A stretch of DNA of 32,000 bases, from NCBI GenBank assembly GCA_004284765.1, contig NQJD01000025.1, forward strand, positions 1-32,000, written 5' to 3'. The position numbers and the translations under genes were made by a program. The notes under the pieces were generated by a model. That model had not been told where the DNA came from. It worked only from the letters and a program-made list of their open reading frames with translations, and searched no databases. The DNA comes from Candidatus Electronema aureum. Its GTDB lineage: Bacteria; Desulfobacterota; Desulfobulbia; Desulfobulbales; Desulfobulbaceae. Each line of letters begins with the position of its first letter. Positions within the stretch are counted from its first letter, which is position 1. This document shows, in pieces, positions 16,311 to 20,357 of this stretch.

Positions 16311-16688
16311 ATGAAGGAAGAAAGCATGGTAAAATTACGGATAACTCTCCACGATAGTGAGGCTGATGACGAGCAGCTTGACCGACTGGCTCTGTCGCTG
16401 ATACGGCAGCTTCGGGATTTGGAGGCGATTGAATCTTTGGAGAGGGAGGCAGGAAAAGCGATAGACAGGAGCAAAGGCGACCCGATCACGGTGGGCGGCG
16501 TGATTCTTGGCATTGCAGTGGCGGCCATTCCGAATCTGATCAGCTTGCTTCAACAGTGGACAGTCGGCAACCGCACCATTAAAGTTGAAGCTCCGAACGG
16601 AGCGAAGGCGGAATTCACCCCAGATCACCGGTATTCCAAAGAGGAAATTGCCGAATTGGTGCGGTCGCTCAATCGAGTCAAGCAATAA
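16311..16688 (+). CDS. EACC1-like protein (effector-associated constant component), partner of the downstream caspase-STAND gene
   Basis: The 125-aa product has three parts. The N-terminus is KLRITLHDSEADDEQLDRLALSLIRQLRDLEAIESLE. A central hydrophobic G/A/I-rich segment, ITVGGVILGIAVAAIPNLISLL, spans 16485-16550. The C-terminus is W-x-x-x-NRTIKVEAPNGAKAEF...EEIAELV. This tripartite pattern matches my memory of EACC1-family proteins found next to protease/NTPase conflict genes. An alternative start is the ATG at 16326, preceded by aaggaag. Confidence 0.65.
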   Translation: MKEESMVKLRITLHDSEADDEQLDRLALSLIRQLRDLEAIESLEREAGKAIDRSKGDPITVGGVILGIAVAAIPNLISLLQQWTVGNRTIKVEAPNGAKAEFTPDHRYSKEEIAELVRSLNRVKQ

Positions 16689-16700
16689 CTGGAAGATGCG

Positions 16701-17450: not shown

Positions 17451-20357
17451 CCCTTTGCGCCGCCTCCCACGCCTGTCGCTGTCCAGTCGGGAAAACGTCC
17501 GCTCACCTACACACTCCGTCCGCAGGCGCATAACTTTGTTGACCGAGTTAAGCAACGCAAGGAATTGCGGAGCGATCTTCTTGATGCAACCAAGGTCTTC
17601 GTGATTGTGGACGGCTTGGCCGGAATAGGCAAAACTATGCTGGCGGCAAAAGTGGCCGAGGAATCTGAAGCTGATTTTGCGGGCATCTATTACAGCAAAT
17701 GCGCAAAAGAAACAGATGTAGATCAGCTCCTCGCAGAGCTGGCGTATTTTTTGAGCGGCTGCGGCGACCATTGTTTGAGTGGCGTGGTGGAGTATGACAT
17801 TCCAGCAGCAAATAAAATTAATTTTCTGCTGGCTGCGCTGGGTGTGCGAAAATATCTGCTGATTTTCGACGACGTGCATGAGCTGCTTAATTCGGAGCGG
17901 CAAATTAGCAATGAGGGAATTAAGCTGCTCTTCAGCGAACTGCTCAACACTCGCCATCAAGCAAAAGTTCTCCTTGTCAGTCGGGTGCGGCCCGTGCTGC
18001 CTTGGCAGCAACTTTGTCAGGTGCCGAGCAGTTTGGAGTCATTTGATGAAGAAAACGGCTTAGAATTGCTGCGGCTGCTGGGATTAGATGAGGACGAAGA
18101 ACTGCTCCGCCGAGCTTGGCAGCTCACGGGCGGCCATCCTTTGGCGATGGGTCTGCTGGCGGGCATGGCCGGAACAATGGATTTGCAGCTCATTTTGGCT
18201 GAAACCAGTCTGTTTTATGGTGGAAGTTTGGTCAACGAACTGCTCCGGCGGCAGTTCTACACCTTGCTCACTGTTGAGGAAAAGAATTTGCTGCTCAGAA
18301 TGTCTGTCCTGCCGCGCCCGGCGGAATTCGGCATTATCGCCCATCTGGAAGAACAGGGGCAGGCGGCCCGCCTGCTGCCTGCGCTGGTGGAAAAAAATTT
18401 GGTGATGTACAGCAGAAAGGAGAAGAAATATCGTCTGCACGATTTGGTGCGGGAGTTCAGTCGGGCTGAGACGACGGCTGAGGAGCAGCAGCTTTGTCAT
18501 TCGCGGCTGGCGGATTATTACGAGCGACTGGAATTCAATGCGGATAAGCCGAGCTTTGAGCAGGTGCAGCAGAGGCTTGAAGCCCAGCATCATGCCGTTC
18601 AGTCTGGTGAGAAGGCCAGAGCAGCACGGCTGCTGGTGGAAACTGCCGAGCATCTACGGAAATGGGGCTATTTGGAGCGGTGCGGAAAGCTGCTGGCCGA
18701 GACCTTGGCCGCGCTGGAGAAGCTGGAGCCGACCAAGGAGCATCTGCTGCTGCGGGTCGATCTGCTGGTGGAGCAGGGCTGGCTGGAACGTTCATCCTCC
18801 GGGTTAGACAAGGCGGTGGAGCGGTGCCGAGAGGCGGAGCGCATTCTGCAAACGGCGCAGGATGAAGGGCGGGAAGGCAAGGTCTGTCATGCCTTGGGCA
18901 AGTTTTTCTACGAAGAGGCGTTGTGGGAGGAGGCAGAACAGTATTTTGTCCGTGCGTTTGAGTTGCAGAAGGCGCGGCGGAACACAAAGGAACTCGCCAC
19001 AGTTGTTTGCAATTTATATGACTTATACTGGCGTGTTGAAGAAATAGAAAAAATAGAAAAAACAAGCAAGGAAGGAATTAGAATCTGTGAGGAAGAAAAC
19101 GATGCTGAAAACAAGGGGAAAATACTGATTGAAGTGCTTGGTAAAACTTTTGGAATACAGCGGAGATGGGAACACGCATTGGCGGTGTATAAAGAAAGTC
19201 TGCGATCAAGGCGAGATGATGATCTTCTTGGTCAAGCTTTGTCTTTACGGAAGATTGGCGAGGTGCTCCGGCAACAGAAGCAGTTTGAGGAGTCTCTGGA
19301 AAAGCATAAGGAAGGTTTTGCGTTAGCTCAAAAGGCTGGTGATATTTCGGCTCAAGCTATGGCATTGTTGGGTTGCGGCTATACATACAGAGATAATGGT
19401 GATATAAACAAAGCCATTGAGCTTTATGGTCAATGTTTTGATGTTGCTAATAAAATAGAGGGGATATCTGGCAGAGCTGATCTGTTTTATGATCTTGGAG
19501 AAGCTTATCGGGATGTCGGTAACTTGGAAAAAGCCTTACAACAGTTTAACGAAGCTCTGCGGTTAAGAAAAGAATCGGGAGATATTCTTGGGGCAGCAGA
19601 TGTATTCAACAGATTAGGTTCATTTTATTCGACAAAATATTCAAATCTCTCCACCGCATTAAAATATTACAAGGATGCACTTGAAATCAAGAAGAGCTTA
19701 GGCAGATCGTTAGGAGTAGAAACGGAAACAAACAATATCGCTTTTGTTTATAAACATCAAGGAAGGTTCGACGAGGCTCTCGCTCTGTTTAAAAAGTTGA
19801 TTTGGATCAGAATGAATAGGAGCTATGATATTGCGATCACTTATAACCATATAGGCCATATATATTACTTGAAAGGAAATATTAAAAAATCCTTTCTTTA
19901 TTTCAAAAAAAGCCTGAGAATATACAAAAAAAATAATAGAGTCGGCGGAATATCAGTTACTCTTTCGTATCTTGGCGAGGCGTATCTTGCTCTTGGAAAT
20001 TATGAAAAGGCTCTTGCAACTCTGCACGAGAGTGTGAATCTGAAAACCGTGATGTCCTCTAAAGCTATCCCGTTAACTTCCATCGCCAAGGTCTATTATC
20101 GCCAAAGAAACCTTGCTGCGGCAAAAAAGAAATGCGAGGAAAGCCTTGCCATCAGCAGGCAGTACGGCGGCAAAATCCAAGCGGGCGTAACCTTGCACCT
20201 TTTAGGGAAAATTCTGCTGGCGCAAGGCCATGCCGAGGAAGCGCGGGCGCATGTTCAGGAAGCAGTGGAGATTTTCCGGGCCGCTGGCAGCTTTCATCTC
20301 GCCGAAGCGGAAAAGACGCTGGCGGAAATAAATGAATTCCGCAGCAATATTGCTTAA
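16701..20357 (+). CDS. Caspase-like (peptidase C14) - NB-ARC/STAND P-loop NTPase - TPR repeat protein, 1218 aa
   Basis: The caspase dyad contexts are YFSGHG (His82, 16944-16946) and ILILDCCFSGAF (Cys133/134, 17097-17102). A Pro-rich linker is followed by FVDRVKQRKEL. Walker A is GLAGIGKT (17613-17636) and Walker B is LLIFDDVHE (17856-17882). A TGGHPLA-type motif (WQLTGGHPLAMGLL) is present. From about aa 640, a dozen or more TPR-like repeats of about 40 aa run to the C-terminus. The start is 12 nt after the EACC1-like ORF. Confidence 0.9.
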   Translation: MERRSALLISSSEYQDASLTRLFAPQNDVQALAEVLRDACIGGFEVKELLINKASSVIREAIADFFAEQRRDDLALLYFSGHGLKDDLNSGKLYLTATDTRRDRLRATGIAASFLLEEVEESKSRRIILILDCCFSGAFARGSKGADEELDAAFKNMGYGRVVLTASNAVQLAYEDEQAKDGAVHSIFTKFLLEGLRTGAADLSQRGEISVNDLYQYVNKQIKQMDSGRRQTPKIWDFDREGEELVIAKNPFAPPPTPVAVQSGKRPLTYTLRPQAHNFVDRVKQRKELRSDLLDATKVFVIVDGLAGIGKTMLAAKVAEESEADFAGIYYSKCAKETDVDQLLAELAYFLSGCGDHCLSGVVEYDIPAANKINFLLAALGVRKYLLIFDDVHELLNSERQISNEGIKLLFSELLNTRHQAKVLLVSRVRPVLPWQQLCQVPSSLESFDEENGLELLRLLGLDEDEELLRRAWQLTGGHPLAMGLLAGMAGTMDLQLILAETSLFYGGSLVNELLRRQFYTLLTVEEKNLLLRMSVLPRPAEFGIIAHLEEQGQAARLLPALVEKNLVMYSRKEKKYRLHDLVREFSRAETTAEEQQLCHSRLADYYERLEFNADKPSFEQVQQRLEAQHHAVQSGEKARAARLLVETAEHLRKWGYLERCGKLLAETLAALEKLEPTKEHLLLRVDLLVEQGWLERSSSGLDKAVERCREAERILQTAQDEGREGKVCHALGKFFYEEALWEEAEQYFVRAFELQKARRNTKELATVVCNLYDLYWRVEEIEKIEKTSKEGIRICEEENDAENKGKILIEVLGKTFGIQRRWEHALAVYKESLRSRRDDDLLGQALSLRKIGEVLRQQKQFEESLEKHKEGFALAQKAGDISAQAMALLGCGYTYRDNGDINKAIELYGQCFDVANKIEGISGRADLFYDLGEAYRDVGNLEKALQQFNEALRLRKESGDILGAADVFNRLGSFYSTKYSNLSTALKYYKDALEIKKSLGRSLGVETETNNIAFVYKHQGRFDEALALFKKLIWIRMNRSYDIAITYNHIGHIYYLKGNIKKSFLYFKKSLRIYKKNNRVGGISVTLSYLGEAYLALGNYEKALATLHESVNLKTVMSSKAIPLTSIAKVYYRQRNLAAAKKKCEESLAISRQYGGKIQAGVTLHLLGKILLAQGHAEEARAHVQEAVEIFRAAGSFHLAEAEKTLAEINEFRSNIA
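17538..18380 (+). other. NB-ARC/STAND NTPase module
   Basis: This module contains Walker A GLAGIGKT, Walker B LLIFDDV, LLVSRVR (sensor-like), GGHPLA, and a winged-helix-like segment (LLRMSVLPRPAEFGIIAHL). Confidence 0.8.
18558..20330 (+). other. TPR sensor array of the STAND protein
   Basis: A-x-x-L-x-x-L/I-G-x-x-Y...G-x-x-E/D-K/E-A-L-x-x-F/Y-x-x-A-L recurs roughly every 40 aa. Examples are GNLEKALQQFNEALRLRKESGD, GRFDEALALFKKLIWIR and GNYEKALATLHESVNL. Confidence 0.8.

Follow-up and report, generated by a model that had tools for sequence, protein, structure and literature searches.

The window analysed in this work is a stretch of 32,000 nucleotides (nt) from Candidatus Electronema aureum (contig NQJD01000025.1, positions 1 to 32,000), and its subject is a pair of adjacent genes, which we read, with a probability of about three in four, as a two-gene EACC1-protease-STAND module for cell death of the abortive-infection type, located on the chromosome of a cable bacterium. 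Both open reading frames (ORFs) lie on the plus strand, as do all features of the locus described below unless another strand is given: a small ORF of 125 amino acids (aa; 16311-16688) lies 5' of a large ORF of 1218 aa (16701-20357). The 12 nt that separate them (16689-16700) contain a GGAAG Shine-Dalgarno-like sequence, which together with the short spacer suggests an operon-style coupling of the two genes; in homologous pairs the intergenic gap is mostly -4 to 12 nt. The large ORF carries the motifs YFSGHG at aa 78 (H82), DCCFSG at aa 132 (C133/C134), GLAGIGKT at aa 305 (K311), LLIFDDVHE at aa 386 and GGHPLA at aa 477. Pfam assigns to it Peptidase_C14 (aa 3-235, E=2.4e-18), NB-ARC (aa 292-490, E=1e-10, 41.8 bits against a cutoff of 23.5) and TPR_12 with related families, which reach aa 1210 (E=1.8e-50). 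A first-pass annotation of this DNA had proposed the same protease-STAND NTPase-TPR architecture, which is borne out by the significance of all three Pfam matches, and its ORF coordinates, 12-nt gap and quoted motifs all agree with the ORF list and motif positions. Gene pair, domains and motifs are direct observations. Long antisense ORFs, such as that at 16845-18011 on the minus strand, were rejected as genes because they lie wholly within a strongly supported coding frame.

The pair belongs to the already known EACC1-caspase-STAND kind and is not a new system. The two-gene 'System 4', described in eLife in 2020 by Kaur, Burroughs, Iyer and Aravind (PMC7159879), has a constant EACC1-caspase core and variable domains C-terminal to the caspase; the first-pass annotation had rightly presented EACC1 as a constant partner, but had placed the variation in the partner effector itself. 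In a bioRxiv preprint of November 2025, Evans et al. (10.1101/2025.11.14.688446) reported that EACC1 and caspase-Avs12 of Ktedonobacter racemifer (KrEACC1 and KrAvs12) are toxic when co-expressed with a phage tail-connector protein, and that this toxicity requires both EACC1 and the catalytic Cys. The earlier statement that such cassettes had no experimental characterisation is overtaken by that study, and the ranking of the locus as the best candidate for a new system does not stand either, in view of the same study and of the curated models that already cover both parts (Pfam PF19953 and NCBIfam NF047832). What goes beyond the literature here, namely a MALT1-like pocket together with a conserved Lys in the linker of the substrate, a recombined TPR block and an insertion scar, consists of predictions or of local evolutionary detail.

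Profile comparisons identify the small protein as a divergent EACC1, an assignment that is settled at the family level. The single protein reaches 15.4 bits (E=0.018) against PF19953, whose cutoff is 23.6, with residues 54-120 aligned to profile positions 38-106 of 107, and nothing was found for it in NCBIfam or PADLOC. A family profile built from it and its three close homologues retrieved 551 clusters at E<=1e-3 among 1.84 billion representatives. Pfam EACC1 was matched individually by 36 of the 83 aligned family members (best E=2.2e-10) and other families by none of the 83, while hhalign aligned the window family with KrEACC1 over 70 columns (E=4e-5, probability 70%). The NCBIfam model NF047832, 'caspase, EACC1-associated type', has a cutoff of 140 bits, and the partner protease scores 178. 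We accept the EACC1 label because of these family-level scans and of the NF047832 match of the partner; the earlier designation 'EACC1-like' therefore holds for family and profile, but not for the single protein against the Pfam cutoff. As in the EACC1 described by Kaur et al., a single hydrophobic segment with a small/Gly patch is flanked by short alpha+beta extensions. The true start of the protein may be M6, the second ATG (16326), 5' of which lies an AAGGAAG Shine-Dalgarno-like sequence. Some close homologues (P0011, P0165, P0167 and P0169) are of about 215 aa and carry an extra domain, PF19960, which appears to be one of the effector-associated domains; fusions of EACC1 to EAD1 or EAD2 are mentioned in Kaur et al. 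(2020; PMC7159879).

The association of the two genes is conserved: of 14 genomic and metagenomic loci with an EACC1 homologue, 12 have a protease homologue beside it, so that the synteny check proposed in the first-pass annotation came out in favour of the pairing. What follows the protease differs among these loci: the closest relatives have NB-ARC-TPR, and others have HEAT repeats, DUF4190 or nothing recognisable. The protease fusions of the Ktedonobacter (Kr) type (P0265-P0384) include WD40/PQQ beta-propellers, Ser/Thr kinases, TPR, TIR, FGE-sulfatase, AAA+/Clp and NarL-type helix-turn-helix modules, a variety that fits the published picture of a constant core with a variable sensor.

The protease domain of the large ORF (aa 1-240, 16701-17420) has a caspase fold of the paracaspase/metacaspase type, according to its matches with Peptidase_C14, NF047832 and MALT1. 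Its catalytic residues are H82 (16944-16946) and C134 (17100-17102), and the candidate acidic residues of the S1 pocket are D28 (16782-16784), D132 (17094-17096) and E175. Across 10 EACC1-linked proteases D28, H82, D132 and C134 are invariant, and C134 aligns with C152 of KrAvs12, the catalytic Cys mutated by Evans et al. When a profile of ten EACC1-linked protease domains was compared with the PDB, MALT1 was the best match (E=2.3e-11), followed by metacaspases, with caspase-1 at E=0.3-0.9. The AlphaFold2 (AF2) model of the domain (mean predicted confidence, pLDDT, 75; predicted TM score, pTM, 0.80) gave a similar result in Foldseek, where MALT1 took all of the top 28 places (E about 1e-11, TM about 0.65), metacaspases 9 and 4 came next and caspase-1 ranked lower. 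Sequence and profile alignments place D28 on Asp365 and D132 on Asp462 of MALT1, which together with Glu500 form an acidic S1 pocket that selects Arg at P1; Asp-specific caspases carry Arg/Gln/Arg at those positions (Arg87/Gln184/Arg233 in caspase-7) (PMC4357240). Matched by eye, the family motif [AS]-[FYW]-E (A173-Y174-E175) resembles Ala498-Phe499-Glu500 of MALT1. With Asp28 and Asp132 in place of a basic S1 pocket, and with a MALT1-like profile and fold, the domain does not fit the caspases sensu stricto (C14A, Asp-specific), and sequence and model place the protease closest to the paracaspases and metacaspases (clan CD, C14B, Arg/Lys-specific). The earlier label 'caspase' is thus correct for the fold and the His/Cys dyad but imprecise, since MALT1 and metacaspases are nearest by both profile and fold. 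The window protein differs from MALT1 in having neither death domain nor Ig domains, and whereas MALT1 is activated by CARD-BCL10 filaments, the window protease would presumably be activated by STAND oligomerisation.

The same domain contains a degenerate EF-hand-like loop (aa 201-214, 17301-17342; ADLSQRGEISVNDL), for which the family consensus is ADLNGDGxITxDEL, and the profile of the C-terminal half of the protease matches EF-hand proteins (1jfj, E=4.4e-4; calmodulin). The loop is canonical in other EACC1-linked proteases (L004, L006, L008, L009, L012 and L014) and degenerate in the window protein and its closest relatives, with Arg at ligand position 5. From these sequences, Ca2+ regulation is possible in part of the EACC1-linked protease family.

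In the AF2 model of the window EACC1 (pLDDT 76, pTM 0.71) two lobes, residues 6-45 and 64-121, are joined by a linker. The acidic N-terminal lobe (residues 1-48, 16311-16454) is a beta-alpha-beta unit with strands at 6-15 and 40-45 and a helix at 20-35. It is followed by the linker (residues 49-61, 16455-16493), which is predicted to be disordered (pLDDT <50) and contains the motif R53-S54-K55-G56-D57-P58 at nt 16467-16484, and by a hydrophobic G/A/I-rich segment (residues 59-83, 16485-16559) that ends in a conserved LQxW. The first-pass annotation had delimited a hydrophobic stretch at 16485-16550, which corresponds to residues 59-80; the Kyte-Doolittle maximum over 19 residues, 2.16, falls at residues 59-77. 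Within this segment G62 is conserved in 77/83 and W83 in 75/83 family members, and G63 and G67 are also present. In the model it lies buried in the monomer, as a strand (64-69) followed by a helix (70-83). The remainder (residues 84-125, 16560-16685) forms a beta-hairpin (88-93, 99-103) and a C-terminal helix (110-121). At pH 7 the net charge of the N fragment is about -4 to -6 and that of the C fragment +1 to +3. The overall shape resembles a ferredoxin-like sandwich; no PDB match was found at E<=0.001, and the best weak matches were generic ferredoxin-like folds.

This layout, in which the N lobe is predicted to pack on the C-terminal strands and to leave the linker exposed, is that of an autoinhibited monomer, and the model agrees with the published soluble autoinhibited monomer, not with a constitutive transmembrane protein. 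The AlphaFold model of KrEACC1 has two C-terminal strands paired to the N-terminal lobe and gives the N-terminal fragment an autoinhibitory role, and AlphaFold2-multimer yields oligomeric rings through strand-strand contacts between protomers (10.1101/2025.11.14.688446). The purified Kr protease cuts EACC1 in two at a putative site, Asp49, beside which the catalytic Cys lies in the AlphaFold model; toxicity is confined to the C-terminal fragment, and liposomes leak only with cleaved EACC1 (10.1101/2025.11.14.688446). The proposal of the first-pass annotation that EACC1 is a substrate of the protease and a membrane executioner freed by cleavage matches this result. By analogy with KrEACC1, we predict that the gene at 16311-16688 encodes a latent pore-forming effector, of which the N-terminal lobe would be the autoinhibitory fragment and residues 59-83 the membrane-active core of the toxic fragment.

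Where the window EACC1 would be cut can be predicted from its linker. Among the 83 aligned sequences, the column counts are 68 for G53, 77 for [ATS]54, 76 for K55 (plus 5 with Arg), 61 for G56, 53 for D57 (plus 22 with Glu) and 42 for P58, giving the consensus G-[ATS]-K-G-[DE]-P. Position 55, basic in 81/83, is one of four family residues conserved at >=90%, and K55 is the most conserved residue of EACC1 outside the hydrophobic core. The linker motif was found in all ten window-type pairs, and in each of them the KGD linker occurs together with the acidic S1 residues; the four Kr-type pairs combine an invariant TQD[WF]G linker with Ser/Ala at the Asp365 position. Considering the near-invariant Lys in the linker, the MALT1-like acidic S1 pocket and this covariation, we predict that the protease cuts at K55|G56 (G-S-K|G-D-P), with Gly at P1' and with D57|P58 as the alternative. 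Caspase-fold proteases generally refuse Pro at P1', for which reason K55|G56 is preferred over D57|P58. The predicted site, basic at P1 and Gly at P1', also resembles the R|G cleavage preference of MALT1. The two candidate sites are only two residues apart and KrEACC1 toxicity tolerates shifted cut positions (10.1101/2025.11.14.688446), so the downstream consequence would be the same either way.

The STAND NTPase module of the large ORF (NB-ARC and winged helix, aa ~279-598, 17535-18494) contains Walker A (17613-17636, with K311), Walker B (17856-17882) and GGHPLA (18129-18146). Besides NB-ARC, Pfam reports NACHT with 33 bits, and among solved structures aa 267-598 are closest to the TPR-sensor STAND PH0952 (6mfv, E=9.9e-22). 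A STAND NTPase of the NB-ARC type is recognised by a Walker A, a Walker B and a GxP (GLPL-like) motif with a repeat sensor behind them, and all of these are present. Next comes a helical arm or proximal repeat region (aa ~599-728, 18495-18884) with a native GC content at third codon positions (GC3) of 0.62-0.83. Its nt identity to Candidatus Electronema nielsenii F5 is 92-100% up to about 18,990, which suggests that this region is co-inherited with the NTPase.

The distal TPR sensor block (aa ~729-1140, 18885-20120; TPR_12, TPR_1, TPR_2 and TPR_MalT) is a recombinant module. At codons ~780-1140 GC3 falls to 0.28-0.43; elsewhere in the gene it is 0.53-0.83, and the neighbouring genes have 0.59-0.65. 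Relatedness flips at the same place, so that the 2.6 kb upstream and the block itself show opposite patterns. Against F5, the closest genome, nt identity is 95.1% to the left and 60.8% to the right of a breakpoint at 18,995 (maximum chi-square 360, reached in 0/300 permutations), and third-codon-position identity drops from 0.92 to 0.44. Against a more distant metagenomic homologue (L001), whose EACC1 is 62% identical to that of the window, nt identity is 75.6% to the left and 90.4% to the right of a breakpoint at 18,885 (maximum chi-square 121, reached in 0/300 permutations), and third-codon-position identity rises from 0.61 to 0.81. At the aa level the distal block is 90.9% identical to L001 and 60.8% to F5, whose contig (L005) ends inside the block. 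A composition rich in Lys, Asn and Ile in the TPRs was considered as the sole cause of the low GC at 18.9-20.1 kb and rejected, as GC3 also falls and the phylogenetic signal flips there. Because the drop in GC3 and the flip in relatedness coincide, we conclude that recombination between lineages replaced the distal TPR array and left the EACC1-protease-NTPase chassis in place; this block is presumed to be the trigger-binding surface. The C-terminal tail (aa 1141-1218, 20121-20357) has a native GC3 of 0.62 and no conserved counterpart in L001, where the protein is shorter by 47 aa.

Taken with the Ktedonobacter results, these features suggest the following mechanism. The distal TPR array of the 1218-aa protein would bind a trigger, by analogy most likely a conserved phage protein, and this would lift the autoinhibition of the NB-ARC NTPase and allow its ATP-dependent oligomerisation. 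Oligomerisation would gather the N-terminal paracaspase-like protease domains and activate their H82/C134 dyads, and the active protease would cut the co-expressed 125-aa EACC1 in its disordered linker, as predicted after Lys55. The acidic N-terminal lobe, which is predicted to hold the hydrophobic segment buried in the ferredoxin-like monomer, would then be released, and the freed C-terminal fragment of ~7.5 kDa, with hydrophobic segment, beta-hairpin and helix, would oligomerise in the membrane, permeabilise it and kill the cell. The probability given at the outset for the module applies equally to this sequence of trigger-induced oligomerisation, protease activation, linker cleavage and permeabilisation; that all the steps operate at this locus, with Lys55 as P1 and a phage protein as the trigger, is what we infer.

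Several observations weigh against this reading or parts of it. The window EACC1 is under the Pfam gathering score, and its BLASTP comparison with KrEACC1 is not significant (E=1.8), so that the characterised homologue is a very distant one; the proteases of both systems share 25% identity (E=1e-7), with their dyads aligned (C134/C152). PADLOC-DB 2.0.0 returned no Avs model for the locus, only the generic models PDLC01169 (TPR) and PDLC02987 (caspase) and a non-significant IetA. The cassette is an isolated insertion among housekeeping genes and does not lie in a defence island, and no relatives of the cassette or of its TPR block were found in viral contigs, on which ground a viral origin of either was rejected. 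With a profile of the protease half after the catalytic Cys, MALT1 was not aligned at E175 and EF-hand proteins surfaced instead. Finally, cleavage after K55 conflicts with the putative Asp49 site of KrEACC1. The same system might have an Asp-directed protease that cuts after D57 (D|P-I-T-V-G), the positional equivalent of Asp49: residue 57 is acidic in 75/83 family members, D57 stands exactly 10 residues before the conserved G67 just as Asp49 stands before G59 in KrEACC1, and the model of Evans et al. sets the catalytic Cys next to Asp49. However, Pro would occupy P1' (42/83), which proteases of this fold generally do not accept, and the S1 positions are acidic, as in the Arg-specific MALT1. 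The fragments of 5.7/7.1 kDa reported for KrEACC1 coincide with the values calculated for a cut at the modelled Asp49 (5,727/7,174 Da) and provide no independent test of that site, and since the Kr-type proteases lack an equivalent of Asp365, their specificity need not transfer. We therefore regard an Asp-directed cut as a serious possibility, yet somewhat unlikely, and retain K55|G56 as the predicted site.

The role of the module in phage defence is also open to other interpretations. It might serve not against phages but as a switch for programmed cell death or stress at the level of the filament, in which the TPRs read endogenous damage or misfolding and single cells are sacrificed. EACC1 systems are strongly enriched in multicellular bacteria, and this cassette is chromosomal, stands among housekeeping genes and keeps its position in two Ca. 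Electronema genomes; on the other hand, the trigger of the one characterised homologue is a phage tail-connector protein, and both the replacement of the sensor block between close relatives and the patchy occurrence and decay of the cassette bear the marks of an arms race, not those of a conserved role in development, which makes such a switch distinctly unlikely. We give little credence to an elaborated form of this idea, an altruistic-death switch of the filament in which the TPR block is swapped as a cassette to re-tune sensing, possibly of endogenous damage or non-phage cues, and a MALT1-like Lys-directed protease arms the pore-former; were it true, bacteria would have a paracaspase-to-pore pathway other than the Asp-directed one proposed for Ktedonobacter. 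Kaur et al. (2020) modelled EACC1 as a constitutive single-pass membrane sensor that perceives a membrane event through its glycine-rich transmembrane helix and activates the caspase, which then processes itself and releases its C-terminal effector domains. The hydrophobic segment does resemble a transmembrane one (Kyte-Doolittle 2.16) and has the small-residue patch that they described, and the C-terminal modules vary widely. AF2 nevertheless places this segment in a soluble two-lobe monomer, KrEACC1 is autoinhibited and disrupts liposomes only once cleaved, EACC1 deletion abolishes toxicity, and the C-terminal module of the window, NTPase plus TPR, is a sensor or switch rather than an effector, so that we consider this model very unlikely here. 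An output other than death, namely the regulatory processing of a partner by a signal-transduction STAND like MalT, AfsR or PH0952, appears exceedingly improbable: the NTPase is most like PH0952 and the repeats match TPR_MalT and, weakly, AfsR-type models, but the Pfam scan revealed no DNA-binding domain, the N-terminal protease is of the EACC1-associated type, and the homologue of its partner is a pore-forming toxin.

Compared with known systems, the pair in the window is a distant relative of the CHARACTERISED system. In both, the EACC1 gene comes first and the protein encoded 3' of it joins an N-terminal caspase-fold protease to a STAND NTPase/sensor; both EACC1 proteins consist of N-terminal lobe, linker, hydrophobic segment and beta strands, and the logic proposed here, in which the protease frees a pore-forming C-terminal fragment, is that of the Kr system. 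They differ in the curated models that they satisfy, as the window protease passes NF047832 (178 bits) where KrAvs12 fails (83 bits), and KrEACC1 passes Pfam EACC1 (28.2 bits) where the window protein fails. The linker is GxKGDP in the window type and TQD[WF]G in the Kr type, and the MALT1 Asp365 position holds Asp and Ser/Ala, respectively. The NTPase is NB-ARC/PH0952-like in the window, whereas the P-loop region of KrAvs12 matches nSTAND5/nSTAND3 weakly (E about 4e-4 to 7e-4). When the first 399 aa of KrAvs12 were compared with the window protein, similarity was detected in the protease domain only, and the best match of KrAvs12 in the protein collection (70% identity) is likewise limited to the protease. 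These comparisons gave no positive sign that the window protein belongs to Avs12, the antiviral STAND that senses portal adaptors/tail connectors. One Kr-type EACC1-protease pair (L099, 98-5881) is flanked on one side by a serine resolvase and on the other by a Mu-like transposase and its AAA+ helper (rve, Mu-transpos_C, AAA_22), which is the context of a mobile element.

The definition of System 4 describes the pair well, with a 5' EACC1, a 3' gene with an N-terminal caspase-superfamily peptidase, variable C-termini and a multicellular host, although its proposed mechanism, with EACC1 as a membrane sensor, is no longer the best supported. System 4 was reported as prevalent in actinobacteria and sporadic in proteobacteria (PMC7159879), while the window comes from a cable bacterium of the Desulfobulbaceae; EACC1 systems are enriched in multicellular bacteria (650 of 671 organisms; PMC7159879), a statistical and not strictly defining association that holds for this filamentous host. 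As in bacterial gasdermin systems, a protease would remove the inhibitory segment of an adjacent latent pore-former, leading to membrane permeabilisation and death, and gasdermin proteases are often fused to NLR-like sensors (cited in 10.1101/2025.11.14.688446). Unlike gasdermins, the window EACC1 has ~125 aa, a ferredoxin-like predicted fold and its putative inhibitory piece at the N-terminus; no gasdermin similarity was found in Pfam and no significant fold match in the PDB. Like Avs and related bacterial NLR-type proteins and like PH0952, the large protein is laid out in three parts, an effector, an NTPase of the STAND type and a TPR sensor. Its Walker A, Walker B and GxP motifs are intact, and TPR-like helical repeats are the commonest Avs sensor type; it differs from Avs in that its effector is indirect, a protease that would arm a separate toxin. 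In the Pepco (Trypco) modules of Evans et al. (2025), too, a small non-enzymatic propeptide stands beside a sensor-fused protease and a single cut leads to a pore, but EACC1 is an autoinhibited monomer with a cysteine protease as its partner (10.1101/2025.11.14.688446).

The locus extends to cable bacteria the logic by which a sensor-gated protease cleaves a small pore-former. Cable bacteria form multicellular filaments that conduct electricity, and when a single cell dies the filament as a whole is affected. The majority EACC1 subfamily is the one that fits the curated protease model of NCBI, and it is this subfamily that a Lys-directed cut by a MALT1-like pocket would concern. The window allele and the F5 allele, 95-100% identical upstream, offer a natural swap of the TPR block between two near-identical chassis. 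Current understanding is not overturned by these results, and their value is incremental.

Positions 7,071 to 19,202 of the window (12 kb) align collinearly with the F5 contig at about 95% nt identity, from which we take the host as a close relative of Candidatus Electronema nielsenii F5, a freshwater filamentous cable bacterium. A genome scan with a 4-sequence EACC1 alignment returned 10 genomes. In the two metagenomic loci L001 and L002 homology is limited to 16,335-20,205, with unrelated flanks. The neighbours are prfC, a ClC channel gene, trkHA, corC, lnt, prfB, a Na+/H+ antiporter gene and DMT_6 on one side, and feoB, a gene for a GGDEF protein, hisHF and a hybrid kinase gene on the other. 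At the left border an intact DMT_6 (DUF486) gene (15957-16307; Pfam DMT_6, E=5e-47) ends with its stop codon 3 nt before the EACC1 ATG. At the right border lies an internally deleted ghost of the same gene (20632-20685), which was recognised through the repeat families D4 and D5 and by side-by-side comparison of the sequences. Its first 24 nt are identical to the intact gene (24/24) and are followed by AGC, by CTCATG (codons 9-10) and by a fusion, through the shared ATG, to the last 21 nt plus stop; its last 24 nt are identical at 23 of 24 positions, and codons 11-110 are missing. The simplest reading of these sequences is a Campbell-type single crossover of DNA carrying DMT_6 and the cassette, which would have duplicated DMT_6, with a later loss of codons 11-110 from one of the copies. 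An empty site was sought among 80 metagenome loci with DMT_6 homologues, none of which has the context Na+/H+ antiporter-DMT_6-feoB.

Between the large ORF and the DMT_6 ghost extends a hairpin-rich spacer of 274 nt (20358-20631). Its part at 20425-20625 has a 21-nt periodicity, with self-identities of 0.46-0.50 at lags 21, 42 and 63 that were reached in 0/2000 shuffles. The spacer belongs to no Rfam family (a spurious lncRNA match lies far below the gathering score), contains no TRF array and recurs neither elsewhere in the window nor in 96 loci. Orphan EACC1 genes were observed at L015 10001-10336 and at L016 240-575 (P0178); their products are 61-63% identical to the window protein and end prematurely in ...YSKEEIV*. 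Downstream of both there is no protease gene or remnant of one, and the neighbours are unrelated (a Uma2 endonuclease and a VapB antitoxin). They look like decayed cassettes, which would mean that the cassette also decays, and its gain, loss and shuffling are typical of conflict systems.

Three other features of the window touch neither gene of the pair. The prfB gene (13637-14750) starts at ATG 13637 and, after 27 codons, reaches CTT TGA C at 13718-13724, with an AGGAG Shine-Dalgarno-like element in front of it; its +1 frame runs into the 312-aa ORF listed from 13812. The programmed +1 frameshift of prfB, the gene of release factor 2, is a classic one. On the minus strand, 5068-6213 encodes a 380-aa protein that consists almost entirely of leucine-rich repeats (LRR_8, E=1.9e-56), and 6390-6764, also on the minus strand, encodes a stand-alone 123-aa protein with the C-terminal domain of RapZ and without the N-terminal P-loop domain.

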